This document shows, piece after piece, positions 1-17,242 of a stretch of 27,207 nucleotides of DNA. The number at the start of each line of letters is the position of its first letter. Position 1 is the first letter of the stretch. The stretch comes from a bacterium (GTDB lineage Bacteria; Bdellovibrionota; FAC87; UBA2466): positions 1 to 27,207 of the forward strand of contig JALHPX010000002.1 of NCBI GenBank assembly GCA_022842225.1. The letters are read 5' to 3'. The notes beneath the pieces are model-generated. The model had not been told where the DNA came from. It saw only the letters and a list, made by a program, of their open reading frames with translations, and searched no databases. The position numbers and the translations under genes are program-made.

Positions 1-2105
1 CCCGTTTTTGGATCGATTCGAGCATCGATGCCGGCGCGCTTAAAGCCATCGGAAAGTTTGGAGATAATGCGCCGACGGTGTTCGTCTCTTGATTGGATTG
101 CAGCCAACTGTCTAGAGAGGCCCTGGTTTTGAACATCTTTCTGAGCCGCCGCCGCCTTGGTTCCCGCTAGCTGACTTGCCATCAATTTCATTTCCGCATC
201 ATGCGCTTTTCGGTCGCTCTCGAGTTTCTCTCGGTATGCGGCTTCTCGCCCGGCGCGTTCGGCGGCTGTGAGCTTCTCCTTTGCAAGGCTAGCTTCAAAT
301 TGGCTACGCTCCTGAGCGAGCTTCTTTTGGTAACCTGCCTCGCGCGCCTTCATCTGGGCTTCACCCTTTGCTAAAGCTTCGCGCGACGCGGCCAGCTCTT
401 TTTCTTTCGACTCCACTTCGGCGCGAGTTCCTTCCAACGCCACTTTGGTTCCCGCTAGTTGCCCAGCCAAAGATTTCATTTCGGCGGCGTGTGCCTGGCG
501 GTCAGCTTCTAGCTTCTTGCGGTAAGCGGCCTCCTTGCCCGAACGCTCGGCTGCGGTGAGTTTCTGTTTGGCTAGATCCGACTCGAACTGCTCTCGCTCC
601 TGCGCTAGTTTTTGCTGGAAGGAAGATTCCAGATCTTTCATCTTTGCTTCGCGTTGGGCGATGGCTGCTTTTGCTCCGGCAATTTCTTTGTCTTTGGATT
701 TGATTTGCTCTCTGGAGCCTTGCAACTCCGAATTGAGCTTCTCCATTTGAGAGGCATATGCCTGCTTCTCCGCTTCGATCCGCTTGGCGTATTCTTTCTC
801 TTCCTGGACGCGCTGGGCAGCGGTCATCTTCTGCTTTTCTAAATTCGCTTCCATCCTGGCGCGTTCCTGATCCAGGCGAGCTTGGTGGGCCTGCTTGAGT
901 TCTTTAATGGATTGCTCGGTTTCCTTTTGCCGGGTGCGATACTCCGCTTCCAGCGCTGCAGTGGCGGCGCGGGTGTCCTCCAGCTCCTCCTGCTTCTGTT
1001 TAACCAGAGCACGAGTGCCTTCGACTTCTTTTTGTTTTTGCAGAATCTGAGCTTTGGTTCCCTCGAGCTGAGTGGAGAGCTGCGACATCTGCGTGTTGTA
1101 TTCCTTAATCTGTCCTTCTACTCGCTCTCGGTACTCACGTTCTTTTTCGATGCGGGCTTGTGCCGTCAGGTTAGCCTGCTCCAAGGATGCTTTGAGCGCT
1201 TTTCGCTCCTCAGACAGCTTCGCTTCATGCTGGAGTCGCAGTTGCTCCACCGTATTTTGATAGGCTTTTTGCTCTTCCTTCATTTGAGCAGCGATAACCT
1301 TTTTTTCCTGCTCCATCTGCGCCAGTTGATTTTGGCGTTCCTGCAAAATTGTTTGTTTTTGTTCCAGCTCTTTTGACGTTTGGTCGAGATCCTGCCGCGT
1401 GCTTACTAAAACCGCGGTGACCTTCTGATTTTGCTGACGAAGAGCAGCCACTTTCTTTTGGCTCTCTTCCTTCATTTTTTGGATCTCGCTCTCTAGTTTC
1501 TGTTTAGAACGAGCCTTGCTGCGATGAGCGTATTGAACTTCTTTGATGGATTGAGCGAGCTTGGCTTCGATGTTGGCAATCTCGCGATTGTTCTTTTCAA
1601 TCTCACTCTCGCGGCTTCGGATCTCGGTCTTTAGCTCGTTGATGCTCTCACTTTTCTTAGCAATGATTTGATCGCGGTTCTTCATTTCCGACTGAGCGAT
1701 CATGTTGGCGGTGATGATGTTTTTGATCATCGATTGATAGTGATTTAAGCCCTGCGCTTTTTTTGCCGTCTCCGCGGCTTCCTGTTGTAGCTTCTCCTTT
1801 TCAGCCGCCGCTTGCTGTTCCAATAGCTTCATCTGAGCCATTAGGTCCTTGTACATCTTCTTTTCCGACGAAGACGCGCCTTGTTGCAGGTACTTTTCCT
1901 TAAGAACTTCAAAAGCCTGAATCTGCTCTTCGAGTTCCTCGATTTTTTTCTCAGCCTTGGCGAGCTGCACGCGCTCCGTCATGGACGCGGTGGTTTGCCG
2001 CATGGTCGCAATGACATACATCATCAGGAAGAGCGTCGAGAGGACGGTGGCCAAGTCGGCATAAGACGGCCAAAAATCCTCGCCGCCGCCCGACTTCTTC
2101 TGCAT
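1..2105 (-). CDS. MotB/ZorB-like single-pass membrane protein with a very long coiled-coil; 3'-truncated by the window edge, probably ending in an OmpA-like domain
   Basis: Manual translation from ATG 2105: MQKKSGGGEDFWPSYADLATVLSTLFLMMYVIATMRQ. This is a MotB-type W-x-x-Y-A-D-L plug/TM motif, followed by ~650 aa of E/K/Q/A-rich heptads, ending at the edge with ...ISKLSDGFKRAGIDARIDPKTG. The frame stays open to base 1, so it is absent from the ORF track. Confidence 0.8.
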   Translation of the reverse strand, partial: MQKKSGGGEDFWPSYADLATVLSTLFLMMYVIATMRQTTASMTERVQLAKAEKKIEELEEQIQAFEVLKEKYLQQGASSSEKKMYKDLMAQMKLLEQQAAAEKEKLQQEAAETAKKAQGLNHYQSMIKNIITANMIAQSEMKNRDQIIAKKSESINELKTEIRSRESEIEKNNREIANIEAKLAQSIKEVQYAHRSKARSKQKLESEIQKMKEESQKKVAALRQQNQKVTAVLVSTRQDLDQTSKELEQKQTILQERQNQLAQMEQEKKVIAAQMKEEQKAYQNTVEQLRLQHEAKLSEERKALKASLEQANLTAQARIEKEREYRERVEGQIKEYNTQMSQLSTQLEGTKAQILQKQKEVEGTRALVKQKQEELEDTRAATAALEAEYRTRQKETEQSIKELKQAHQARLDQERARMEANLEKQKMTAAQRVQEEKEYAKRIEAEKQAYASQMEKLNSELQGSREQIKSKDKEIAGAKAAIAQREAKMKDLESSFQQKLAQEREQFESDLAKQKLTAAERSGKEAAYRKKLEADRQAHAAEMKSLAGQLAGTKVALEGTRAEVESKEKELAASREALAKGEAQMKAREAGYQKKLAQERSQFEASLAKEKLTAAERAGREAAYREKLESDRKAHDAEMKLMASQLAGTKAAAAQKDVQNQGLSRQLAAIQSRDEHRRRIISKLSDGFKRAGIDARIDPKT
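156..1570 (-). repeat. Intragenic tandem repeats (~89-114 aa) building the coiled-coil rod
   Basis: Units end in QLAGTK / QLAGTK / ELQGSR / QLEGTK / VLVSTR at about 156, 444, 711, 1053 and 1395 (spacing 288, 267, 342, 342 nt, all in frame). The two most distal units are similar at DNA level (ttggttcccgctag at 157 and 445; KLAQER.QFE..LAK.KLTAAER.G.EAAYR.KLE.DR.AH.AEMK). Confidence 0.8.
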
Positions 2106-2216
2106 TTTGTCGTAGTTAAGGCTCAATTCTATGCACCCCTGCAAAGGCAAGTATCGGTACATGCAGGGGAAATCTTTAGCGAAAGTGTATTTGGCCCGAT
2201 TTAGGGCGGGTTCGCA

Positions 2217-3227
2217 TCAACCTAGCCACTCGAGTAGTGGACCCATGGACTCCGTGAGCCCTTTATACTGACGGCTCTCTGGGTCCATCGTGCGCAAGGA
2301 GCTGCGTAAAAGATCACGCTGGGCAGGGTTATTGCGAATCGCTCGTCCATCGATGTAATAGACGCGGATAAAGAACAGCGCGGCCTGGGCTTGCGGCATC
2401 CCGACGGTCACTTGGCGCTCCAGTCGGAGGTAAAACGGACACTCCCCCTCGGGCACCGCTTGGAAACTCCGCCCTCGCCACTTGGCCGCCTCCCAACCAG
2501 GCGCGGGCTCCGGATGATGGTTCAGCCGATCATCGCTGCCAAATCCCCAGACAAAACGCACAAATGGCCCCTTTGAAATCATCGCGTGTACCATTGCGCG
2601 AGCAGCACGCGAAATCGGTTCTATATGGGGCACCGGCGAATGCGTTTGGGAAAATGTTTTACCTATCTTGTTTTCGGCGGCCCAATGACCGGGTGAGCAG
2701 AGGTGGATGGCGGATAGCCAATCACGGTCGTCTTGACGACGCACGACCGCGACGTCTTCGGAAATCTGATTCACCAGGGCGTCGAACGCCCCGGAGTAAG
2801 GCGGCACGATGGGTGCCGTGCCAGCAACGCCGGAAAGTACGTAACGCTTAAAGGTGAGAGTTTCTGAAGTCGGCGCGCAATCGAGACGTCCCGTTCCGTC
2901 TTCATCCCCGCGCCATTTAAAGAGTCGGGGGTATTCCTCCAGCAAAATTCCAATTATCTTGCGCGCGCAAATGGCCTCGATATCGGCATCAAATTCACTC
3001 GTCGCATAGTATTTGCCCAGCCTCTCCGCGCGACAGGCTAGTTTGTTTTCCTGGTAACGTGTGAACGTATTATCAATTTGAATGATCCGGGAGTCAGCCG
3101 GTCCATTGCCGAAATCCGTGCCGAGATTTTTTAATCCCGCCGTGACCTGGTAAATACCGCCTTCTACTGGAAAATAAAAAGCAGGTGGGGGCAAAAGTCC
3201 CGATTCCAACCAAGCTTTCGTGTCCAT
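2217..3227 (-). CDS. DUF3445 family / heme-dependent oxidative N-demethylase alpha-subunit-like protein
   Basis: Motifs QISEDVAVV, LSAIHLCSPGHWAAENKIGKTFSQTHSPVP, FVRFVWG and YLRLERQ match DUF3445. Start placed at ATG 3227 (GGAGGG 7 nt upstream) rather than the track's 3371. Confidence 0.75.
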   Translation of the reverse strand: MDTKAWLESGLLPPPAFYFPVEGGIYQVTAGLKNLGTDFGNGPADSRIIQIDNTFTRYQENKLACRAERLGKYYATSEFDADIEAICARKIIGILLEEYPRLFKWRGDEDGTGRLDCAPTSETLTFKRYVLSGVAGTAPIVPPYSGAFDALVNQISEDVAVVRRQDDRDWLSAIHLCSPGHWAAENKIGKTFSQTHSPVPHIEPISRAARAMVHAMISKGPFVRFVWGFGSDDRLNHHPEPAPGWEAAKWRGRSFQAVPEGECPFYLRLERQVTVGMPQAQAALFFIRVYYIDGRAIRNNPAQRDLLRSSLRTMDPESRQYKGLTESMGPLLEWLG

Positions 3228-3443
3228 CCCGTCACCCTCCCCATCTGCCCTAGCTTTTACCTCATTCGTTCCATTCTGAACACTTTTCGGCCGTGGTAAC
3301 AGATGGTTCCTTTTTCTGAAACACCCGCTTCGTCGCCTGTTGACCGCCCGATGACAGAACACTAACCCCAAATTAGGGAGCCGGGTTTGAGCTATTGCTT
3401 TTTCGGCCCTGTTGGAAGTTCCGCATCGTCGTTTGGGGGAATC

Positions 3444-6400
3444 ATGTTTAGGCTACTAGCCACCGTCACGCTCTGCTCAGTCCTATTTGGCCAATCACCT
3501 TCCCTTGCTTCACTGAACGACGACTCCGTCGACAAAGAAGCTTACGAACAAAGACTTGCCGCTCTGTCGCAGCAGCTTTCGGAGGCACGCAAAAATGCAG
3601 ACGAAAAGGCGCGGAGTCTGCTTTCAAGAACAAACGAAAAGGACCAGGCAAAACTGGACCTCGACCGCATCTCCAGTGTGACCCAAATAAAAAAGACGAG
3701 TCTAGGCTCTTTGCAGAACGCAAACGCCTCAATCGCCACGGAAATCGCTGAAAACAAGAAGCGCATTATCGCCCAAGAAGGTGCCGCGACTACCCTTTCC
3801 GCTCAAATCAATTCCCTGGTGGCCAAGGAGAAGCAGGCTGGCGAAGACCAGCGGTCCGCAGCGGACGATGCCGACCTGGCGACGAAGGCAGTGAATACCC
3901 AAAACGCGAACTTGGCCGATATCCAGAAAGAGATAACCGACAATCAGACGCAGATAAGCCGCAATGACACACTCATTGCCGAGAACGAAACCCAGCTGGC
4001 AACCTCGCAATCGGAGCTGACGGATTTGGAGGAACAAGAGCGACAGCTGCTTGCCGAAAAAAGCGATATCCAGCAACAGCAAAAGGACTTACGCAATGAT
4101 ATGGACGATATCGATCGCGCGTTTCGATCCTTGCAGAAGCAAATCGCCGACAACGATCTAATCGTGCAGAAAGCGTCAGACGCTTTGCAAATGAAGGACG
4201 AATCCATTGCGGGAATCGAGCGCACACTTGAGGAGCAAAAGCGAAAGCTCGCAGATGCGAACGATAAACTGGGTAAGGAAACTCAAAAGTCTGCCGCCAT
4301 TGCCAAGGCAATTGAAGAACTGAGGAAGAAGCAATCGACGGAGAATACGAATCTAAAGGCAATCGACATTGAAAACGAAAGTTTGACCGAATCCATCACA
4401 CAATCAAACGCCGAAATCGCTTCCATCGATTCTCAGCTGGAAAATGTAAAAACCCAGATCGCCGAGGTTCAATCCAAATTAAAGGATGCCACTGACAAAG
4501 GGCCGCTTGAAGAGCGGCTAATGGAGTTAAAGGCAAAGCAGACCGAACTAGCGGCCTCTCTAAAGACCCAGCGCGATTTGCTGGCGAAAGACAAGGCAGC
4601 TCGCACGGCCCTAATTGGTAAAAAAGCAGAAGTGAAATTGCGACTCGTCGACATCGACAACCAAGCCGCCCAGAAAGCAGACGAACAAACTGCTATTGCT
4701 CAAGTCATCGGTGCAGCCGCTAAAGAGGAGCAAGCGGCTAAAGTGGCTCTCGATGCATCCAGCCGTTCTCTGGACAAAGCCAAGACCGATTTGGTCGCCG
4801 CCAAAGCAGAGGCAGAGAGGTTGTATAGCATTCAGGACAAGTTAGATGAGCGCTGGCAGGAGTTAGACGGGTTTCAAGATTTACTGGCTAAGAAGGGCCC
4901 GTTTTTAAGTACAGTCTTAATTTCCTTAAATGCATCGCTTCGTATCGTTCAAGACGAAGCGCTTCCCAAGGTTCAAAGCGCGGAGACAACAGCAAAGCAG
5001 CTCTTGGCAGATTTAACCGCGACGCACCAACAACTGTTGGCCGAAGGGCGCAAACTCCAGAGAGAAAAGACGGACAACACAACGTCGCTTGCGGAATACC
5101 AGCGTCAATCCGGTTTGCGAGCTGCGGAATTAAAAGCGGCCGAGAGAATTGTAACGGAGACGAGAAACTCCCTTCTCGTTGCACGCCAAACCTTGGCTGG
5201 AATTAATGCCGAAGTGGCTTCGCTTAGGACTTCGATTGCCGACCGAGATGCACTGATCGCCAAAAACCAAATCGCCATCAAAGTAGCAATCGACGAGATC
5301 AGTAAGCTTGACGGCCAAATCGTTGCTCAAACGAAGGTCCTCAATGATGCGCAACTCGCGGAGAAATGGGCACGCGATATTTGGGAGCCGCTCGAACAGG
5401 CGGCCGTTGCCGCCGCAAAAGCCACCGACGAGGCAAAAACCCTCCTCGCCAGTCGTATTGCGGCCTACCAAAAAGCACTGGCTGATGTGGTGCAAAAAGC
5501 AGCTAAAGACGCACAAGGTCCCGGAGCAACCGAGGGTCTCTCTGGTGGTGCGCCGGGTTCCATTGCTGGAGCCCTTGCGGGTGAAATAAGCTGGAAACAG
5601 GAAGGTAGCTCGCAATTGCGTGCGGCCGAGTTTGCAAAAGCCTTTGATGTCGCTCGAGCCCAGGCGGTGAGTGCCAATGTAATCGCCGATATTCGCGAGA
5701 ACTCTGCACAGCAGGCCGAACGAATTGCCAACGTTTCTCTGCAAGCTTCGTTTGATGCGGGAATAAAGCGAGGCAAGGCAGACGGAATGAAATCTGGCAT
5801 CTTGCTGGGTGATACTGCCGAAGCGGAGAAACGCGGGTACGACGCGGGATACGCGGTGGGAAAGCGGCGCGTTGAATCCGAAATGGAGCAGGCACTGCGC
5901 AAAGTAAATTACCAACAGCGTGAAGCCGAGATTCTTAAAGATGATCCGCCGGTCATCCCACCTACCCGCGAAAAGCGCGATGCAACGAAAGAACAAGCTG
6001 CCTATTTCGGGGTTTCCCACTTGCTGCGCCTCTTTCAAGTGACTGAGGCAGTGGCGGCCGATGGCCTGGGTGTCATTCCCGCTTCGCAAGTGCCAAAGGT
6101 TACTTATAGTGGCAGGAAGTACCTCGATAGCGGCCTTAAGCCTTTCCACGCAGATTTTGCGGGTGTGTACCGAGCGGCTTACGACGAAGCGTACTCCAAA
6201 GCCTATACCGCCTCGTATCTCGATAGCTACCGCACTCAATTTGTAAAAGCGCACGGCGACGCGTTTGCCGCGGCTAAAGCCAAATCATTGCAAGACGGCT
6301 TTGCAGACGAAGTAAAAAAAGGAACAGAGGCCGGGACAAAGGACGGATTATTCGAAGCGCTTGGTTACAATGCGGGTCGGGACGCCGGATTGATTGAAGG

Positions 6401-7265
6401 AAAGAAAAAAGGCGAATTAACCGCCCTCGAACGCGGCAAATCGGCGGGCGATGCTCAAGGCTACAAGGACAACCAAGAGCCGGCCCGACTCGCTGCTATT
6501 GCGAACGGTCGAGCGGATTGCGACTCCGTCTATCGCAACAGCGTGCGACTTGTCGCTAAAACGCCCAATCTCTCGCTCGTGGAAGAAGTAGCAAACAAGC
6601 GAATCGAGCTAAACGAAAAACTAAGCTGGGGCGGTACTCTAAGAAACTTTGGGGGGACGCGTGCCGAAAAGGCTACGGTGACGATTCAAGTCGATGCCGC
6701 GAGCATCCGGGGCGTTAAATTCGACAAAAACACCATCACGCTTGCCGCGGTGGAAGCAAACTCCGAGGTGGAGTTCTCCAATCTACTAACGGGCGTGGTA
6801 ACGCCCGACTCCCAGGTCGCGTTTAAGGCAGGAGTCTTTTACGATTCTAAAAAAGTGGCGGAGTTTGCCTTTACGCAGGAGATTTACGCGCCTTTTCTGG
6901 TCAGTTTCTCAGACTATTACTACGCGACAAAATCGATGCGCGTAGGCGATGTCGGTAGAGGCAATGGCTATCTCAATGCAGTGCGCGTTAAGAGCTTGGG
7001 GGATGCCAAGCTGCTAGACGATCTCAAGGTTGCAATTAGCTTGGCCGATGCCAGCGTGGGAAAAACCAGCTGGTACCAAACAACGGGAGAGTTCGTCGCG
7101 CTAGACGAGAAAGCTACCGATGGTACTCGGTTCAAAGGATTTTTCTTAAATGCCGCGGCATCCGCTGGTCTGGCGAAAAATAAAATCCGAGTCCGTCTGC
7201 AAAATAAACTTGGGCAAATCGTCTTCGACAAAATTGTCGACGCTCCGGTGGAGGTGAGACAGTGA
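3444..7265 (+). CDS. Giant secreted coiled-coil protein with GxxxG/YxxA repeat stalk and C-terminal beta-sandwich-like domains
   Basis: ATG 3444 after GGGGGA; N-terminal signal peptide MFRLLATVTLCSVLFGQSPSLA; ~680 aa of heptads; Gly-periodic helical repeats; beta-rich C-terminus (LSWGGTLRNFGG...VTIQV). No enzyme motif recognised. Confidence 0.75.
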   Translation: MFRLLATVTLCSVLFGQSPSLASLNDDSVDKEAYEQRLAALSQQLSEARKNADEKARSLLSRTNEKDQAKLDLDRISSVTQIKKTSLGSLQNANASIATEIAENKKRIIAQEGAATTLSAQINSLVAKEKQAGEDQRSAADDADLATKAVNTQNANLADIQKEITDNQTQISRNDTLIAENETQLATSQSELTDLEEQERQLLAEKSDIQQQQKDLRNDMDDIDRAFRSLQKQIADNDLIVQKASDALQMKDESIAGIERTLEEQKRKLADANDKLGKETQKSAAIAKAIEELRKKQSTENTNLKAIDIENESLTESITQSNAEIASIDSQLENVKTQIAEVQSKLKDATDKGPLEERLMELKAKQTELAASLKTQRDLLAKDKAARTALIGKKAEVKLRLVDIDNQAAQKADEQTAIAQVIGAAAKEEQAAKVALDASSRSLDKAKTDLVAAKAEAERLYSIQDKLDERWQELDGFQDLLAKKGPFLSTVLISLNASLRIVQDEALPKVQSAETTAKQLLADLTATHQQLLAEGRKLQREKTDNTTSLAEYQRQSGLRAAELKAAERIVTETRNSLLVARQTLAGINAEVASLRTSIADRDALIAKNQIAIKVAIDEISKLDGQIVAQTKVLNDAQLAEKWARDIWEPLEQAAVAAAKATDEAKTLLASRIAAYQKALADVVQKAAKDAQGPGATEGLSGGAPGSIAGALAGEISWKQEGSSQLRAAEFAKAFDVARAQAVSANVIADIRENSAQQAERIANVSLQASFDAGIKRGKADGMKSGILLGDTAEAEKRGYDAGYAVGKRRVESEMEQALRKVNYQQREAEILKDDPPVIPPTREKRDATKEQAAYFGVSHLLRLFQVTEAVAADGLGVIPASQVPKVTYSGRKYLDSGLKPFHADFAGVYRAAYDEAYSKAYTASYLDSYRTQFVKAHGDAFAAAKAKSLQDGFADEVKKGTEAGTKDGLFEALGYNAGRDAGLIEGKKKGELTALERGKSAGDAQGYKDNQEPARLAAIANGRADCDSVYRNSVRLVAKTPNLSLVEEVANKRIELNEKLSWGGTLRNFGGTRAEKATVTIQVDAASIRGVKFDKNTITLAAVEANSEVEFSNLLTGVVTPDSQVAFKAGVFYDSKKVAEFAFTQEIYAPFLVSFSDYYYATKSMRVGDVGRGNGYLNAVRVKSLGDAKLLDDLKVAISLADASVGKTSWYQTTGEFVALDEKATDGTRFKGFFLNAAASAGLAKNKIRVRLQNKLGQIVFDKIVDAPVEVRQ

Positions 7266-7738
7266 GTAAGTTGTGGGTAATGCTGGCTGTGACATTAAGT
7301 TGTATCGTCGTCGACGCGGAGCCACCCGCAAGGTCGGGCCGCGACGGAGGTCGTGAAGCAAATCGCGGCGATCGACGCACCCATCGTCCGGGGAGCCACT
7401 TTAAGCAGGCAGAAATTGAAAGTCTTATCTCCAAACTTTGCAAAGAAATCGCAATTTACCGCACTTCGTGCGCTGGAATTGCCGAGTTCTCAAGCTTCTC
7501 CAGAGATTTGCAAAATTTTGGCAGCACCCTTAGCGGGCTAAAGTCGGGACTCGGGCGAGGATTTGAGAGCTGCGGTCCTGATCTGAGACGGGCGATTCGG
7601 GAATACGAAATTTTGGACCAAACCTTTCAGTCGTCGTTATCCACTCACAAAAATTACAAAGTGCGTTTAGGTTGGTCTAAAATCAAAACGGCTTATCTAA
7701 GATTTAACTTTGCTGCCACGGGTGGTCGATCGCTCTAA
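7262..7738 (+). CDS. Hypothetical secreted alpha-helical protein
   Basis: GTGA overlap with the upstream stop codon suggests translational coupling; hydrophobic N-terminus MSKLWVMLAVTLSCIVVDA. Confidence 0.6.
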   Translation: MSKLWVMLAVTLSCIVVDAEPPARSGRDGGREANRGDRRTHRPGSHFKQAEIESLISKLCKEIAIYRTSCAGIAEFSSFSRDLQNFGSTLSGLKSGLGRGFESCGPDLRRAIREYEILDQTFQSSLSTHKNYKVRLGWSKIKTAYLRFNFAATGGRSL

Positions 7739-7791
7739 AGCCGCCTTGGCACCGGTAGCCTATAGTGAGCGTTGAAGGATTTTGAATCAAA

Positions 7792-8268
7792 ATGGCAACG
7801 AGAGTGATGAGCGTCAGCCACTCAAATTGTATTTTCCGATTTTTGTTATTTATTATTGCTGTAAACGTGGTTGGGTCGCAGGCCATAGCGGCAACCAAAT
7901 TTGAGTGTTCTGAAGATTCCACGGCTGGCACGACCGCTGACAATAAAGGTCCGGCACTTCATTGGACTTACCTTATTGTGCCCGCGGGCCCCGATGCCGC
8001 AGAAGTTTCTATCGATGGCTTCCAGACATCCATTAAACTAGAGGCCACTACTGCGAAAAAGGCGAAGGGAACCTCTTACATTTTCAGTAAGTATGCTCCA
8101 GATACAATCCACTCTCGCCCTGAAATCAAAAAAGGTAAGGAACTATTCATCGTATCAAATACCAAGAGTGGCGGTTTTCAACTTTCCTTTAGGACGCTAA
8201 AGCCCAATTTGGACCAGACTACTATCGAATGCCAAGCGATCGAGTCTCCGGCCGCGGAGAAGCGTTAG
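7792..8268 (+). CDS. Hypothetical secreted beta-rich protein
   Basis: 158-aa ORF with a signal-like stretch (FRFLLFIIAVNVVGSQAIA) and Cys near both ends of the mature part. The true start may be the ATG at 7807. Confidence 0.6.
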   Translation: MATRVMSVSHSNCIFRFLLFIIAVNVVGSQAIAATKFECSEDSTAGTTADNKGPALHWTYLIVPAGPDAAEVSIDGFQTSIKLEATTAKKAKGTSYIFSKYAPDTIHSRPEIKKGKELFIVSNTKSGGFQLSFRTLKPNLDQTTIECQAIESPAAEKR

Positions 8269-8319
8269 CACCTACTGCAAGAAAGTCCGTCCTGTGGCTA
8301 CCCGTGATGTTCCTCAAGC

Positions 8320-8757
8320 TTAAAACGTTTCGAGAAAATGCGCGCCTTCGGCCGAAACAGAGAAACGTAGCGTGTGGGTAAACACAGGAGCTTGAGTTGA
8401 CCAACGACTGGGCCATTCGACGAAGACGTAGCCTTTTTGGGATTCGGCGCGTTCGACCGCATCCCAGAATCCGATTTCGACGAGTTGCTGCTCGTTTACT
8501 TTCTCCAGGCGGTACCAGTCGAAGTGTTCCACGCACGGATTGAGATCGTAGGATTGGTGGAGCACAAAAGTTGGACTGATGATGCGAGGGACTGGCTGGG
8601 AAGTTTTTCGGCAAAGTGCCTCAATGAACAACCGTACAAAGGTCGTTTTGCCAGCACCCAACTCACCTTCGAGTGCCACCACGCCGCCGTTCGGCCAGGC
8701 TACTAAGCACTGCTCCGCAAACTGTTGCAGCGAATTTAAATCAGGCAACGCGCGCAT
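8320..8757 (-). CDS. tsaE: tRNA threonylcarbamoyladenosine biosynthesis ATPase TsaE (YjeE)
   Basis: VVALEGELGAGKTTF (Walker A), SPTFVLHQSY, HFDWYRL, VEWP. Confidence 0.95.
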   Translation of the reverse strand: MRALPDLNSLQQFAEQCLVAWPNGGVVALEGELGAGKTTFVRLFIEALCRKTSQPVPRIISPTFVLHQSYDLNPCVEHFDWYRLEKVNEQQLVEIGFWDAVERAESQKGYVFVEWPSRWSTQAPVFTHTLRFSVSAEGAHFLETF

Positions 8758-10247
8758 TACAGTTCCCCGATAGCGTCGCTAATCGTATTGGCTACTTCGT
8801 GAGCCAGCGTCGAGTAAGTGTGGCCATGACGCTGGGTGAGAATTTCCGAGGCCTTGCCGTGCAAGTAACTAGCAGCACTGGCCGCCGCAAAGGGCTCTGC
8901 ACCTTGTGCCATGAAGCCAGCGGCCACTCCTGCCAGTACGTCTCCCGTTCCGCCCTTAGCAAGTCCCGCATCCCCCGTTGGCACCACTGCCAGAGGTTTG
9001 CCTTTTTCCGCAAGGATCGTCCCCGCACCCTTCAATAGAATTGTGGCACCAAACATTTCCGATAGTGCTTGAGCCGCGCGATATCGATCTCTTTGCACTT
9101 CTTCGACGGAGCTATCGAGTAAGCGCGCTGCTTCTTTAGGATGGGGAGTAAAAAGTGTTTCAGTGCCGGCGCGCAATTTTTGGTAAGTCCCTGCAGGCAT
9201 TTCAGAAATCAAAGTCAGTGCATCTGCGTCGATAACCAGCGGAACTTTGGATTGCAGGCACTCTTCTAAGATCTGCTTAGCCTGTGGACCTGTGCCAAGA
9301 CCCGGTCCGATAACGACGACAGAGCTACCAGGCTGCCATTTTGCCTGATCGGTCAGCACCACTTCCTGCGCGAACAGCGATCGATCGAGCGATTTAGAAT
9401 CTGCGGCCACGAGTTCCGTTAGTCCCGCCCCCGCACGCAACGATCCCAGACACGATAGCGTAGCCGCACCGATCATCGAATGGTCGCCGGCTACGACCGA
9501 CACTTTGCCAAAGCTGCCCTTGTGACTATCGCGCTCTCGCTTGGGCAGCCATGCCCGCACATCCGCGGCATCGAGTAGATAAGCGGCACCTAAACCATCC
9601 GAAAGATCCCGCGGGATCTGAATCGGTGCGACCGTGAGACCGCCTACATAATCCAGCGCCTGGCCCGTTACCAAACCCGTCTTGGCAAAACCGAGAGTGA
9701 CGGTGCGCGACGCGCGCACAGCATTGGATAAGATCTGCCCCGTAGTCGCGTCCATGCCGCTTGGTACGTCGATAGAGAGAATAAATTTGCGGCCGGCGTA
9801 GCCATTAATTGCGGTAATCCACTCGTCAAACGTCCCCTCGGGAGCTCGCGACAGACCCACGCCAAAGATCCCGTCGAGTACCCAATCGGCCGCAGCTAAC
9901 GCTGCTTGGTAGTCTTTTAAGAAGGGAATTCCCAGCTGCTTGGCCATTCCAATTTGTGCAGCCCACAGCGGGGAGGCTTTGGTCTCAGGCGTAATCACAA
10001 TCGAGATCCCGCGCTGGCCGTTGATCCACAGCATGCGCGCTACCGCAATTGCATCCGCCCCGTTATTGCCAGGACCTGCGAAGACAAGCCCGCGAGTGCG
10101 GCCCAAGGCTCGGCCAAAACGCGACGCCAAAGAACCCGCTAGCGCCATCGCCGCGTGCTCCATCAAGATCATTTCGGGAATATGAAAACGTTTTACCGCA
10201 AGAGAATCGATCTCTCGCATTGCATTCGCAGTAACTAAAACCTGCAT
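8757..10247 (-). CDS. nnr: Bifunctional NAD(P)H-hydrate epimerase/dehydratase (YjeF/Nnr)
   Basis: LMEHAA, GPGNNG, DGIFGVGL and SIDVPSG in the YjeF_N part; HKGSFG, GPGLG, DADAL, TPHPKEAARL and GGTGDVLAG in the dehydratase part. Confidence 0.95.
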   Translation of the reverse strand: MQVLVTANAMREIDSLAVKRFHIPEMILMEHAAMALAGSLASRFGRALGRTRGLVFAGPGNNGADAIAVARMLWINGQRGISIVITPETKASPLWAAQIGMAKQLGIPFLKDYQAALAAADWVLDGIFGVGLSRAPEGTFDEWITAINGYAGRKFILSIDVPSGMDATTGQILSNAVRASRTVTLGFAKTGLVTGQALDYVGGLTVAPIQIPRDLSDGLGAAYLLDAADVRAWLPKRERDSHKGSFGKVSVVAGDHSMIGAATLSCLGSLRAGAGLTELVAADSKSLDRSLFAQEVVLTDQAKWQPGSSVVVIGPGLGTGPQAKQILEECLQSKVPLVIDADALTLISEMPAGTYQKLRAGTETLFTPHPKEAARLLDSSVEEVQRDRYRAAQALSEMFGATILLKGAGTILAEKGKPLAVVPTGDAGLAKGGTGDVLAGVAAGFMAQGAEPFAAASAASYLHGKASEILTQRHGHTYSTLAHEVANTISDAIGEL

Positions 10248-10251
10248 GGGA

Positions 10252-11628
10252 CTAACCTAATTGTGCGCGGAGTGTTTGAGAGATTTCGGCGGCAAATGCA
10301 CGAATACGAACATCGTCTTCGCCTTCTACCATTACGCGCGCCAGTGGCTCAGTGCCAGAGTATCGCACTACTACTCGGCCTTTTTGTCCTAGCGCTTTTT
10401 CTACCTTTTTTATCACATCCACAATCGCGGGAACTTCGGATAGCTCGCGCTTGTTGCGGACGATGACGTTTTCCAAAACCTGGGGATACAACGTCACTTG
10501 CTTCTTGAGTTCCGACAACGGTTTGCCGGTTTTTTTCATGATGGAAAGAATGTTGAGTGCGGCAATAATGCCATCGCCAGTCGTGTTGTGATCTAAGAAG
10601 ACTACGTGGCCTGACTGCTCGCCGCCCAGATTGAAACCCTGCGCGCGCATCATTTCAACGATATAACGATCACCGACCTGCGTTTGAACCGTCTTGCCGC
10701 CTGCCGCACGAATGGCGATATCGAGTCCGATATTGCTCATCGGAGTGGTGACGAGCGTGTTCTTTTTCAATCTGCCCTCGGCCAACATATGCAGTCCGCA
10801 AATCGCCAAGACTTGGTCGCCGTCGACAATCTCGCCTTTTTCATCGGATAAAATCAATCGATCGGCATCGCCATCGAGCGCAATGCCAATCTCGGCGCGG
10901 TGGTGGTGCACGGCTTGCGCCATGGCTTGTGGATAGACCGCTCCGCATTGCTCGTTAATATTCATGCCGTTCGGCGAGCAATTGATGGGGAAAACTTCCG
11001 CGCCCAATTCTTCAAATACAATGGGAGCGACCTTATAAGCAGCGCCATTAGCGCAATCCAAGACAACTCGGATGCCTTCTAAGTTTACGTCTTGCGGGAA
11101 GGTGTCTTTCAAATAAACAATGTAGCGACCAATCGCATCGTCGATACGACTGGCGCGACCAATGTGCTCCATGGTCGGGCGAACTTTATCGAGTTCTTCG
11201 GATTGAATGAGACGCTCTACTTCGCGCTCTTTTTCATCCGGCAATTTGTAACCAAAGCGATCAAAGATCTTAATGCCGTTGTATTGATAAGGATTGTGGC
11301 TAGCGGAAATAATCACGCCCGCGTCCGCGCGCATGCTGCGAGTGATAAAGGCAATTCCGGGAGTTGGCAGGGGGCCTACGAGGTATACGCGCGCGCCCAT
11401 CGAGCAAAAGCCCGCGGAGAGTGCGTTCTCTAACATATAGCCTGAGAGCCGGGTGTCCTTGCCGATAACAACTTTGGGGCTGGTGCGACGCGCGTCGCGT
11501 CCGCAGAGCAAGTAGCTCACCGCGCGCCCAATAGCCATCGCGAGCTCACTCGTCATGGGGTATTGATTGGCGATTCCCCGGACTCCATCCGTGCCAAAAA
11601 TTTTCGACTTCGATTTGCCGTTGTCCAT
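10252..11628 (-). CDS. glmM: Phosphoglucosamine mutase
   Basis: [25 protein letters not shown] (phosphoserine), DGDADR (metal loop), [15 protein letters not shown]. Confidence 0.97.
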
Positions 11629-11631
11629 GGC

Positions 11632-12327
11632 CTACTTTTTCTTTTTAAAGCGTATTTTGACCTGGACAGTCTTATCACCGGTGAGCTGCAATTTCTGCAT
11701 TTTGTCGACTTCCAGCCCAATTTCCGTGGACTGCGCCGAACCATCTGCAGCTAATGCAATGGGTTCCGTGGGGATAAATTCCAAGCCTTCTACAGCCGAT
11801 TTAGGTCCTAAAATAGCCACCTTAGCGGGAATCACGGTGGCGACAGCTTCCATCCCCGCCGGTGGCTCCCCTTGTAAAATAGGACGGACGATAATGGATT
11901 TTTGCGCCACTTTCTCTAAACGAATTTGTACCATCGCGGGGGAGAAGCTTACGACGCGCACGCCTGTGGGCAATTCGCCAATCAGGTCTTCTCGGATGGG
12001 GAAGCCCACCACGCCCTCTTGGGCCTGACGGTAATCAGGCTGAATAGCGCTGATGCCCTGCTCTACTTTTTTCAAAAGCACCCGGGGGCCCGACAGAGTG
12101 AAAGTAATGTAGTTGGGGATCTCGTTGGTGATGATGACATCGGGGGAATGGAGCGGCTTTAAGAGCACGCGTTTTTCCAGTTCTTCTTTTTTGAAACCCA
12201 AAATCGTAATCCAAAGAATCAGCGCCAGGAGCAAGCTCACGGCTTTAAGTGCAAAGCTTTCGCTCCACGACAAGGAGCCGTGTTGGCTACTCAAAAATCG
12301 GCGCAAAGCTAAGAGAAAGGTCTTCAT
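11632..12327 (-). CDS. cdaR: CdaR/YbbR-like regulator of diadenylate cyclase
   Basis: Single N-terminal TM (LKAVSLLLALILWITI), YbbR-like beta repeats (ITFTLSGPR; PAKVAILGP), position between cdaA and glmM. Confidence 0.85.
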   Translation of the reverse strand: MKTFLLALRRFLSSQHGSLSWSESFALKAVSLLLALILWITILGFKKEELEKRVLLKPLHSPDVIITNEIPNYITFTLSGPRVLLKKVEQGISAIQPDYRQAQEGVVGFPIREDLIGELPTGVRVVSFSPAMVQIRLEKVAQKSIIVRPILQGEPPAGMEAVATVIPAKVAILGPKSAVEGLEFIPTEPIALAADGSAQSTEIGLEVDKMQKLQLTGDKTVQVKIRFKKKK

Positions 12328-13139
12328 GATTGGCCCCTTTCTGTTTCACGCGTTTCTTGTTTGCGCAGACCCAAAAGTTCCAATAGCTGATGACGCAGCC
12401 CGTTCACATCCAAGTCGCGAACGATCTGACCATGGTGCACCAGCGACATTTCACCACGCTCCTCGGACACCACGATGACGACTGCATCCGTCTCTTGCGT
12501 TAAACCGATAGCGGCTCTGTGACGAGTGCCGAGCTCTCGGTGCACGTTTGGATCGCGCGTAATGGGCAATAGGCAGCCCGCTGAAGTGATTCTAGAGCCA
12601 CGTATGATCAAAGCTCCATCGTGAATTGGCGACGACGGATGGAAGATAGAGATAATCAGATCGGTGCTGACGCGGGAGTCAATCAGCGTGCCTGCTTCGA
12701 TGTAATTCTTCAGTCCCGTCTCGCGTTCCAAAACAATCAACGCACCGACGCGCTGGTGCGCCAACGCAGTCGCAGCTTGGCAAATATCTTCGATGATTGC
12801 CACTTCTTCGATCGTATTCGTGCCTGCAAAAAACGGATTTCGGCCTACTTGCGTGAGCGCTTTACGGATCTCGTCCTGGAAGACGATGATCAAAATCAAA
12901 ATGAGGTTGTTGAAGAACTCCACGAGGACCGTGTGCAAGGTGTGAAAGCGCAGCTTGTCGGCGAGGAAATAAAAAATCAAAATGATGCCGAAACCTGTCA
13001 GCATCTGGACTGCGCGCGTTCCACGGATCAAAAGTAAAACGCGGTACACAATGATCGTGACCAGCAAGATATCTACAAGATCTTGCCAGCGAATAATCTC
13101 GCGGATGTCCGTGAAAAATTGTTGAAAATCTAAGAGCAT
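12324..13139 (-). CDS. cdaA: Diadenylate cyclase CdaA (DisA_N/DAC domain, membrane anchored)
   Basis: N-terminal TMs (DLVDILLV...), GALIV, catalytic HDGA and GTRHRAA motifs, VVSEERG. Confidence 0.95.
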   Translation of the reverse strand: MLLDFQQFFTDIREIIRWQDLVDILLVTIIVYRVLLLIRGTRAVQMLTGFGIILIFYFLADKLRFHTLHTVLVEFFNNLILILIIVFQDEIRKALTQVGRNPFFAGTNTIEEVAIIEDICQAATALAHQRVGALIVLERETGLKNYIEAGTLIDSRVSTDLIISIFHPSSPIHDGALIIRGSRITSAGCLLPITRDPNVHRELGTRHRAAIGLTQETDAVVIVVSEERGEMSLVHHGQIVRDLDVNGLRHQLLELLGLRKQETRETERGQS

Positions 13140-13236
13140 AGAAAGTTTCGTGGACCACTCTGGTCCATTACAAACGAATACACTGCTACATTAGATTTCG
13201 GCAAGTTACGGAAATACTTTAGGAATATAAGGTCGG

Positions 13237-15120
<1,884 letters not shown>

Positions 15121-15270
15121 ATTTGAAGGACCCTTCTGAAGGTCTCTTCGGTATTTTCCCGAGATCGCTGAATGCTAGATAAAAGAATAGTGAACCGCGA
15201 CTCCCCCTTTTTTGGATGCGATTGTAAGTACTCTTGTTTACAGGTGTTTAAAGCCGCCTGGAAAAATTCA

Positions 15271-16563
15271 CTAGCTTTGTAGGAATGGGAAGTCACACCG
15301 CGCCGTGGAAACTTCCAGCAGAGATTCCTCGCTGCCTAAGTACCAAAGGACTTGGGAGGTGGAGGGTCTTGCTAATACCGGAATGAGTTTTCGTTCGGGT
15401 GCGGGAATGCGACGGCGCTGGAAAATCTCTTTGAGTTTTTTGCCGGAACTGGCCAGGCGGTCACCTGCTTCAAAGTAGCGAGCTTCCCAGCTATTCTCTA
15501 AGTTCGGCACGAGAATTTTCAAGTCGGTCTTGATTTCTTCGAAATGAAAAATTCCGTTTTCGCCGCGTTCAGGGGAAGCCTCGGGAGCCTCTTTATCGAG
15601 CAACAAGTACCAATACCCCATCGACACGCGCACTTTGATGCCGTCTTTTAGATGAAAGCGTTTTTGTCCTTGTCGAATATGTTTCAGCCAAAGTTTGAGC
15701 TGTTTGCGGCAAACTGTCTTCCCCAAGAAGCGTTCGCTCATTTGATTGAGCACATGCGCTTTGAGTGGCTTGGGCACCTGGTCCCACGCTTCGCAAGAAA
15801 CGCGCACCCAGAACGGCGTTTGCACGGCTAATTCATCGACAAGTCGTTTTACTTGTTCGTCGAGGTAATCCTGCACCTCGACCCCGCGACGGCACCACTC
15901 CGATACATTGTCCAAAGCCGCTTGGCGGGACATGCCGAAATTCTCCGCCACTTGCAGCAACTCTTGCGCAGCCCCATGCCGAATTGCATTGCGAAAATAG
16001 CGCGCATTGTAATTAGAAAGATCCTGCCGATAAGCGACGGCGTTTTTCTTGGCGTAGTGTTCGATGCTCTCGCGCGAGACGGTTAGCAGCGGTCGCAACC
16101 ACCTACCCGCCCTTTCCCGAATTCCGCCCATGCCGCGCCAGTCGGTGCCGCGCAATAGACGCATCAAGACTGTCTCCAACTGATCATTAGCGTGGTGTGC
16201 GGTGCAGATGAAATCAAAATCGTGTTTCTCGGCAATCGATTCCATGAATTCGCGCCGCAGATTGCGCAGCACCTCTTCTGGAGCGGGGCCGATTTGGTGA
16301 CGGCTGCCTTGATAGAACTCAACGCCCAAATCTTCGCTAGCTTTGCGCACGAGCGAAGCATCTTCTTCGTTCTCTTTGCCACGAGTGCGGTGGTTAAAAT
16401 GAGCCACCGCAAAATCTTCTTTTGAGAATTCCTGCGCTACCGCGTGCAGCAGCACCATGGAATCCATGCCGCCTGATACAGCAATGAGAAAGCGGGGTTT
16501 GACCGGGATGCCATCGGGTCCATCAATTTTGTGAGGAAGTTTTAGTTTTAGCTCGGTGCTCAT
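15271..16563 (-). CDS. tilS: tRNA(Ile)-lysidine synthase
   Basis: AVSGGMDS PP-loop, AHFNHRTR, TAHHANDQLETVLMRLLRG, RPLL, D.SN...YFRN.IRH; TilS_C-like KKLKEIFQRRRIP.PER. Confidence 0.95.
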   Translation of the reverse strand: MSTELKLKLPHKIDGPDGIPVKPRFLIAVSGGMDSMVLLHAVAQEFSKEDFAVAHFNHRTRGKENEEDASLVRKASEDLGVEFYQGSRHQIGPAPEEVLRNLRREFMESIAEKHDFDFICTAHHANDQLETVLMRLLRGTDWRGMGGIRERAGRWLRPLLTVSRESIEHYAKKNAVAYRQDLSNYNARYFRNAIRHGAAQELLQVAENFGMSRQAALDNVSEWCRRGVEVQDYLDEQVKRLVDELAVQTPFWVRVSCEAWDQVPKPLKAHVLNQMSERFLGKTVCRKQLKLWLKHIRQGQKRFHLKDGIKVRVSMGYWYLLLDKEAPEASPERGENGIFHFEEIKTDLKILVPNLENSWEARYFEAGDRLASSGKKLKEIFQRRRIPAPERKLIPVLARPSTSQVLWYLGSEESLLEVSTARCDFPFLQS

Positions 16564-16652
16564 AGACCTATTGACAGGGATACTGGATCTTGGGGTGGGC
16601 CGTCAAAGCAGCGAAGCGTCACAACCAAGCGGTTGGCTTCAATGAAAGAAAA

Positions 16653-17033
16653 TTAAGCAGGTCTCATGTGCTTCTCGAGCCAGCCGGCAATGGTCTCGAG
16701 ACCGACTTTTTTCTCAATCAGTGATTCGATAATGAATCGTTCGCCGTTATCCGGTTCCACTTTAAGTCGGTAACCATTCATTCGGAGAAAAATAGCAGTC
16801 GTGGCGAAGGCAACCCGTTTGTTGCCATCCACAAAAGCATGGTTTTGGGCTAGGCTTTGAAGCAAGGCAGCAGATTCAAGCGACAGAGTCTTATAATATC
16901 CCGTTTGGGGGCGCTGTAGAGCGCTCTCCAATAACCCTAAATCCCGCACGCCGCCTGCACCTCCAAAGCGCTCGATCAGCTGATCATGAAGGACCAAGAC
17001 TTCTTGTAGCGTGGGATACAGAGTGACTTTCAT
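16653..17033 (-). CDS. doc: Doc (death-on-curing) family Fic-fold toxin
   Basis: GGAGGVRDLGLLESALQRP and HAFVDGNKRVA (Doc-type NKR); ATGA overlap with the antitoxin. Confidence 0.93.
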   Translation of the reverse strand: MKVTLYPTLQEVLVLHDQLIERFGGAGGVRDLGLLESALQRPQTGYYKTLSLESAALLQSLAQNHAFVDGNKRVAFATTAIFLRMNGYRLKVEPDNGERFIIESLIEKKVGLETIAGWLEKHMRPA

Positions 17034-17242
17034 TTAGCTAATCGCTTTAAAAGCTCAGAATGGTCCTTCAAAACCTCTTCCATTGCGCTTCCAAAGGCAG
17101 GTCGCACCTGCACACGCTGTAAATATTGCGCCACGGCCTCTGTCACAACGCCTGAAATGCTACGGTCAGAGGCCGCAGCAAAGCGCTTTAGATCTCGAAG
17201 AACCGTCTCGTCTATTTGGGTGGCAAACTTCTTCAGCTTCAT
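17030..17242 (-). CDS. Ribbon-helix-helix (CopG-like) antitoxin of Doc
   Basis: MKLKKFATQIDETVLRDLKRFAAASDRSISGVVTEAVAQYL fits beta-helix-helix; the C-terminal helix HSELLKRLAK resembles Doc-neutralising tails. Start at ATG 17242, directly downstream of the promoter. Confidence 0.85.
   Translation of the reverse strand: MKLKKFATQIDETVLRDLKRFAAASDRSISGVVTEAVAQYLQRVQVRPAFGSAMEEVLKDHSELLKRLAK

Follow-up and report, generated by a model that had tools for sequence, protein, structure and literature searches.

The window, a stretch of 27,207 nt from a Bdellovibrionota genome (G000:C2:1-27207, in an assembly of 416 contigs that is 74% complete), opens with a leftwards gene, 3-2126 on the minus strand, which encodes a MotB/ZorB-like protein. 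Taken as a whole, the explanation that best accounts for it, and that we hold to be very probable, is that this protein forms the B subunit in a ZorAB-related membrane module of two or three genes that has not been characterised. The module is a conserved relative of the 5:2 ion-driven motors that stands outside their four known roles, and about one in three of the high-quality Bdellovibrionota genomes sampled has it. The copy in the window is set apart by three things: a stalk with four repeats, a two-gene form lacking the FHA protein that accompanies the module in other lineages, and an assembly gap that hides the partner gene. An earlier note on this DNA had described the gene as an orphan carrying a continuous rod of about 95 nm; the subunit type that it proposed holds up, and the orphan state and the rod do not. 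A literature search for a ZorAB-like family found no paper describing the module.

The B subunit

The reading frame of B runs off the left end of the window, reaching the first bases without a stop codon, as had been seen before. The window holds its first 708 codons, cut at the contig start, and we infer from the orthologs a full length of 874 amino acids. One ortholog, on the metagenome contig L115, is 874 amino acids long and 87% identical across all 708 window residues without a gap. A protein search returned P0001, also of 874 amino acids, at 77% identity, along with shorter homologs of 609-731 amino acids. The N-terminal peptide DFWPSYADLATVLSTLFL quoted in the earlier note is present in the translation, and its Asp codon, GAC, lies at 2057-2055 as given there. 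The start codon is likely TTG 2126, rather than ATG 2105, the start taken earlier, or ATG 2162, because the orthologs begin at the TTG and because a promoter-like element, described below, overlaps ATG 2162, which is ATC in L115. An AGGGG run read from the sequence as resembling a ribosome-binding site (2136-2140, minus strand) lies 9 nt before TTG 2126. Residues are counted here from that TTG, which makes the Asp D24; it is part of a transmembrane (TM) helix at about residues 19-42 (2001-2072, minus strand).

The TM Asp is invariant in a 44-sequence alignment of B, and of the N-terminally complete members only one short form, L018, lacks it. This agrees with the proposal of a MotB/ZorB-type subunit with an ion-pathway Asp. 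The match to MotB_plug (PF13677; Pfam cut-off 24 bits) is divided: the window fragment matches weakly, at 21.6 bits and under the cut-off, while the L115 ortholog (25.1 bits) and P0002 (29.4 bits) are over it.

Full-length relatives of B all end in a domain of about 185 amino acids with the motifs G-F-A-S-P and N-x-x-L-S-x-x-R-A, the latter invariant, and a conserved Cys pair (C851 and C856 in P0001). The window encodes its first 10 residues (AGIDARIDPKT; 3-32, minus strand), and the other ~166 amino acids are missing from the assembly. The ZorB1 model of PADLOC matches the C-terminal domain of P0001 with an E-value of 2.4e-26, and the B family profile matches the ZorB chains 8vvi_A and 8qyd_F in the PDB; a single-sequence phmmer search of the domain against the PDB gave no match, whereas the profile search did match ZorB. 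When the AlphaFold2 model of P0001 is searched by Foldseek, the ZorB proteins of 8vvn, 8vvi and 8qyd rank at the top. In VIA-align it reaches Z 17.4 with 8vvi_B, 16.4 with 8vvn_A and 14.4 with 8qyd_F, with MotS, MotB and PomB behind at Z 12-13. The G-F-A-S-P loop stands where ZorB II has G-H-T-S-S. The OmpA/MotB_C-type domain that the fragment loses at the contig end is present in the orthologs L115 and P0001 in ZorB form: it is a ZorB-type, OmpA-like domain, predicted to bind peptidoglycan. By homology to ZorB and MotB, and from the wall-binding C-terminal fold and the conserved Cys pair, B would be oriented with its N-terminus in and its C-terminus out, and the stalk would be periplasmic.

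The A partner and a gene pair split between contigs

Relatives in the same family and phylum have, directly after B, a gene for a protein of ~310 amino acids with three hydrophobic segments and the motif L-P-G-L-F-V-V-G-G-I-F-G-T-F-L-G, which we call A. We sampled 84 loci, 80 of them drawn from the 285 relatives that a scan of GTDB species representatives gave. A is immediately downstream of B in 78 of the 84, and B comes before A in all 78 that hold both. In L115, the A gene (381 amino acids, three TM helices, ZorA/ExbB-like) begins 10 nt after B. The window's own genome has an A gene as well. Contig C292 opens in the middle of it (G-I-F-V-V-G-G-I-F-G-T-F), with C292:3-626 encoding the last 207 amino acids, which are 84% identical to residues 174-381 of the L115 protein. 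From the adjacency of B and A in L115 and this fragment, ~1.03 kb is missing between the starts of C2 and C292. Judged by this match, the B-A pair of this genome is split by an assembly gap, with the rest on C292.

A survey of MotAB homologs found B directly downstream of A in all of them (PMC12505986). The author of the earlier note looked upstream because MotA normally precedes MotB, and the order is reversed here. The same-strand gene upstream (2217-3371) is, as was said, HODM_asu-like/DUF3445 (PF11927, E-value 1e-37) and not a MotA homolog. The idea of an orphan fails because the gene is cut by the contig end, because a gene of the MotA/ExbB/ZorA class lies downstream in the relatives, and because the A fragment on C292 is not an unpartnered homolog but the partner of B beyond a gap of ~1 kb. 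Calls of this sort at contig ends require comparison with relatives.

Profiles and folds place A closest to ZorA. Three A proteins compared with Pfam gave no match, and the C292 fragment scores 12 bits against MotA_ExbB, where the cut-off is 22.9. The ZorA models of PADLOC and NCBIfam match A weakly, and all NCBIfam and PADLOC scores fall far under the equivalog cut-offs. A 45-sequence A profile matches ZorA in 8qyh/8qyd with an E-value of ~1e-7, and ZorA is the best match of the TM2-TM3 region of A. The AlphaFold2 model of A has a predicted local distance difference test score (pLDDT) of 86.7, and its best folds are ZorA, followed by ExbB/TolQ. Although mean column identity is only ~34%, A retains the TM2 motif G-x-x-G-T-F-x-G and has 22 invariant positions. 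The proteins from the 78 loci are 268-448 amino acids long, with ~40-140 residues after TM3 that are mostly of low confidence or disordered. A complex prediction with A 1-285 and B 1-110 supplied as alignments scored 0.00, which is evidence in neither direction.

The extreme C-terminus of A is also conserved. In 76 A genes (L015-L108), a variable low-complexity tail ends in [K/R]-[A/V/S]-[S/A/G], with K or R at -3 in 62 and a final AS, AA, VA, AG, VS or SA in 57. The A protein on C292 ends in K-A-A; an AA ending occurs in 1.1% of 697 neighbouring proteins. This tripeptide may be a docking or degradation tag. An order-level relative, L018 (G026:C4), has the inverse layout. Its B (9476-10423, minus strand) is 315 amino acids long and without the TM Asp, and its A-like protein (7177-9495, minus strand) is 772 amino acids long with a long acidic tail, ending in the helix of the window-lineage A proteins and K-A-A.

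The third gene

Many loci have a third gene after A, which encodes an FHA protein; the count in the 84 loci is 34 by clustering and 50 by Hidden Markov Model (HMM). The protein, 700-1550 amino acids long, opens with an FHA domain, has ~450 residues of coiled coil and a single TM helix, and ends in a conserved domain of ~180 amino acids. PADLOC gave no match to it. A profile of the FHA protein finds full-length matches in genomes G015 and G034, and bare FHA domains only in the window's genome, in G004 (100% complete) and in G008 (97% complete). In L115, L029, L030 and L045 no FHA protein is adjacent to A. Since no full-length FHA protein was found in the window lineage, the module there has the two-gene form. 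The A proteins of this lineage are longer (355-448 amino acids) and have a common C-terminal helix; a comparison of A length with absence of the FHA protein gave no clear rule.

The stalk

Residues 43-698 of B are free of Pro, contain 2.5% Gly and are predicted to be helical (77%-identical ortholog P0001). The heptad signal is real, with a mean best-register score of 2.97 as against 2.07 +/- 0.12 in shuffled sequences. The best register, in turn, switches about 20 times along the stalk. Of the ~650 amino acids of continuous heptads described earlier, the Pro-free helix and the heptad signal stand, but the continuity is contradicted by these register changes and by the helix breaks described below.

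The stalk begins with a proximal module, residues 43-203 (1518-2000, minus strand), with a conserved NxYQxMIKNII motif that lies at a fixed 110 amino acids from the start of the TM profile in 58 of 80 relatives. Comparison of the stalk with itself then reveals four repeats with periods of 114, 89 and 96 amino acids, each with a core of ~63 amino acids. On the minus strand, these cores lie at 1044-1232 (residues 299-361), 702-890 (residues 413-475), 435-623 (residues 502-564) and 150-332 (residues 599-659). By an HMM of the core, run on 89 proteins in all, four copies occur only in the window protein, P0001 and L030; 5 proteins have three, 13 have two, 47 have one and 21, the long gammaproteobacterial B forms among them, have none. 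No DNA direct repeats of at least 30 nt were found within the B gene, and L115 and P0001 carry the same four repeats as the window protein. Together these indicate that the repeat expansion is old. The lack of such DNA repeats also rules out the repeats as the cause of the assembly break.

The distance from the Asp to the C-terminal domain is 335-385 amino acids in 42 of 81 proteins and ranges overall from 335 to 774. P0001, at 666, is among the five longest, and the window protein shares its numbering up to the break.

The AlphaFold2 model of P0001 (pLDDT 75.6, predicted template-modelling score (pTM) 0.41) has eight long helices, with breaks at 83-85, 114-120, 204, 318-321, 430-435, 521-524 and 617-620. 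The last four are internal to the cores, and pLDDT is at least 88 around three of them. Pieces 269-373 and 471-575 of the model superpose on helix-loop-helix hairpins with a root-mean-square deviation of 1.2-2.2 A over 77-101 residues, and piece 451-677 superposes on BAR-type antiparallel bundles. The arms of the modelled stalk are 78-113 residues long (12-17 nm) and lie side by side, whereas a straight helix of 656 residues would measure ~97 nm. The rigid rod of ~95 nm proposed earlier is at odds with four helix-turn-helix repeats that form antiparallel hairpins in the model. The helical part of the stalk is probably folded back at the repeated motifs, and 95 nm is an upper bound for its length, not an estimate.

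A promoter-like element upstream of B

At 2152-2178 on the minus strand, 52 nt upstream of TTG 2126, there is a FliA/sigma-28-type promoter-like element, TAAAG (2178-2174), N16 and CCGATA (2157-2152). The attack-phase consensus of Bdellovibrio is TTAAG-N16-CCGATA, which is present in 92 of 140 attack-phase promoters (PMC3627812). The elements in the window and in L115 match it at 10 of 11 positions, and the boxes and spacing in L115 are identical. Of 78 upstream regions from the family, 14 match at 10 or more of the 11 positions where shuffles give an expectation of 0.5, and 37 match at 9 or more where 6.0 are expected. Most of these matches fall 32-75 nt ahead of the start codon. The B operon thus appears to carry a promoter-like element of the attack-phase (FliA) type.

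Distribution and genomic setting

By the A profile, the module is present in 48 of 148 genomes of the phylum that are at least 90% complete, nearly always in a single copy. Its frequency is uneven between families: 12 of 15 genomes carry it in family f8, 15 of 29 in f10, and 4 of 28 in the family to which the window belongs. Most loci come from Bdellovibrionota metagenome-assembled genomes (MAGs), with some from Gammaproteobacteria and Desulfobacterales MAGs. Clustering of 1009 neighbour proteins showed only A and the FHA protein to be conserved; the flanks are variable and ordinary. No nuclease, helicase or other effector was found next to the module in the loci examined, by clustering and by Pfam on sampled neighbours, and no gliding or secretion genes linked to it were seen in those loci.

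What the module may do

The module is probably an ion-driven membrane motor, by analogy with its relatives. If the module is built like its homologs ZorAB, MotAB and ExbBD, five A chains would form a ring in the inner membrane around two B chains, and the ion path would be formed by the invariant Asp of B and the conserved motif of A (G-I-F-G-T-F-L-G in TM2, with Ser/Asn in TM3). The ZorB-type domain of B would fix the complex to peptidoglycan, so that ion flow would turn or switch the A ring. Between channel and wall anchor, the stalk would act as a folded, segmented spacer that sets their distance and the compliance of the link. Output to the cytoplasm would pass through the cytoplasmic domain of A with its conserved [K/R]-[A/V/S]-[S/A/G] end, and in most other lineages also through the FHA/coiled-coil/TM partner. 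Our best guess for the role is a motor or mechanosensor that is anchored to the wall and belongs to the free-swimming, hunting state. In its fullest form, the proposal is that predatory Bdellovibrionota have turned a ZorAB-derived ion motor into an envelope machine or mechanosensor of the attack phase, with a spacer tuned by one to four motif copies and an output through the A tripeptide and, in most lineages, the FHA/coiled-coil partner; this is tentative, and we hold it as possible but not likely. If it is true, it would add a fifth functional class to the 5:2 motors. A motor or sensor of the hunting state would also offer a handle on how predators sense or reshape the envelope, and a series of one to four repeats with which to probe linker-length gating of a stator-type channel.

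Several points count against reading the module as a wall-anchored motor. Stoichiometry, ion flow and rotation derive from homology, as opposed to experiment or a model of the complex. The A partner falls short of the Pfam MotA_ExbB family, both in the three proteins and on C292. The window fragment has no C-terminal domain, and its MotB_plug score is below the Pfam cut-off. In the relatives that have the domain, the peptidoglycan pocket is only partly kept, with G-F-A-S-P in place of the G-H-T-S of ZorB II. The hairpins come from a monomer AlphaFold2 model with a pTM of 0.41, and such models tend to over-fold long helices; nor do the lengths of the arms flanking a single core co-vary positively (r = -0.45 in one-core relatives). 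The promoter is no more than a sequence match. Finally, the distribution is patchy in the phylum and sparse in the window's own family.

Patchiness, together with flanking genes that differ between loci and with ZorA and ZorB being closest by sequence and fold, would also suit a new Zorya-like anti-phage subtype, in which a wall-anchored motor senses phages attacking the envelope and signals inward, with the FHA protein or the A tail in the place of ZorC/D/E. We consider this unlikely. Only A and the FHA protein are conserved, with no effector beside them in the loci examined, and A is without the long ZorA tail. The flanks are housekeeping genes (FtsH, TilS, GlmM, ArgRS), not defence islands. 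The module is nearly always in single copy, and most f8 genomes have it. Nor would one expect a defence system to have a FliA-type promoter.

Slightly less likely again is a static tether or scaffold in which B links the inner membrane to peptidoglycan, the Asp and A being inherited without motor activity. The kept peptidoglycan-binding fold, the wide variation in stalk length between Asp and C-terminal domain and the loss of the Asp in the short relative L018 all fit such a role. Against it, no other N-terminally complete member has lost the Asp, A keeps its TM2 motif and invariant positions at low overall identity, and the two genes are tightly coupled, as by the 10 nt in L115.

The absence of a MotA-like gene upstream, where DUF3445 lies, the ~650 Pro-free helical residues with a heptad signal above shuffles, and the ~310 helical residues that even the family mode has between TM helix and C-terminal domain speak for an orphan protein with a continuous ~95 nm rod, used as a long or extensible periplasmic arm. 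We hold that reading to be very improbable, given the gene cut at the contig end, the A gene downstream in relatives and on C292, the many register changes and the hairpins at all four cores; the gliding, envelope remodelling and prey contact suggested for the arm were speculation, with no linked gliding or secretion genes.

Other genes around the module

The rest of the window is housekeeping in character (FtsH, TilS, GlmM, CdaA, ArgRS and a Kdo transferase). Divergent from the DUF3445 gene, 3387-7265 on the plus strand encodes a 1292-amino-acid protein with a signal-peptide-like N-terminus, ~700 residues of coiled coil and a C-terminal half that could not be assigned to a family, for which only generic SMC-like coiled-coil matches were found. 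It was considered as a part of the module and rejected, as the protein in the corresponding position in L017 is no homolog of it. Between tilS and a GYF_2-domain gene, 16653-17033 on the minus strand encodes a small Fic/DOC-family protein of 126 amino acids, which may be half of a toxin-antitoxin pair.

Beyond the gap, the gene after A (locus L020, G000:C292, 644-1378, plus strand) encodes a secreted protein of 244 amino acids that belongs to no Pfam family and has a weak match to a MXAN_5808-type peptidase segment. L115 has a major facilitator superfamily (MFS) transporter after A, so this gene is not conserved with the pair. In L059, a Bdellovibrionia MAG, the B-A pair is followed by a protein of at least 2274 amino acids with ten Calx-beta repeats (10377-17198, plus strand), which extends to the edge of the sampled locus.

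Comparison with known systems

The known roles of 5:2 ion-driven motors are flagellar rotation, Ton/Tol force transduction, gliding and type 9 secretion (T9SS), and Zorya defence. Among solved structures, the Zorya cores of ZorA and ZorB come closest to the module (E. coli type I, 8QYD; Shewanella type I, 8VVN; Sulfuricurvum type II, 8VVI). B resembles ZorB in its Asp-bearing TM helix at the N-terminus and its ZorB-type OmpA-like domain at the C-terminus, and A resembles ZorA in its three-TM, ExbB-like topology. The order is B then A instead of zorA then zorB. A, at about 300-380 amino acids against ~700 for ZorA, lacks the long pentameric cytoplasmic tail, while B has 300-750 helical residues between TM helix and wall-binding domain that ZorB does not have, and so the reversal of the Zorya layout recognised in the earlier note, with the long element on B and not on A, is borne out. 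No ZorC/D/E/F/G genes are linked to the module, which has instead an FHA/coiled-coil/TM partner in many lineages, though not in that of the window, and a FliA-type promoter-like element.

With the flagellar stators MotAB and PomAB, the module shares the TM Asp of B and the wall-binding fold, and B also matches the MotB_plug region, below the cut-off in the window fragment and above it in L115 and P0002. The motAB genes of E. coli are sigma-28 dependent. Unlike MotA, however, A has no Pfam MotA_ExbB match and has three hydrophobic segments in a ZorA/ExbB-like arrangement, not four TM helices. The gene order is reversed, and there is no linkage to flagellar genes.

The fold of A also matches ExbB and TolQ of the ExbB-ExbD-TonB and TolQ-TolR-TolA systems. 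In the lineages with an FHA protein, the three-part set of A, B and a bitopic third protein would by analogy recall TonB or TolA. B differs from ExbD and TolR in being MotB/ZorB-like with a wall anchor, and the third protein, not found in the window lineage, differs from TonB and TolA in that its bulk is cytoplasmic (FHA plus ~450 amino acids of coil).

GldLM/PorLM, the motor of gliding and type 9 secretion, is of the 5:2 type and has a B-like subunit with a long periplasmic arm. The comparison is one of working principle only, as no sequence or fold match to the module was seen. The arm of GldM consists of Ig-like domains and has no peptidoglycan anchor, whereas that of the module's B is a helical element leading to a wall-binding domain. 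Compared with GldM, B is therefore more likely the fixed part.

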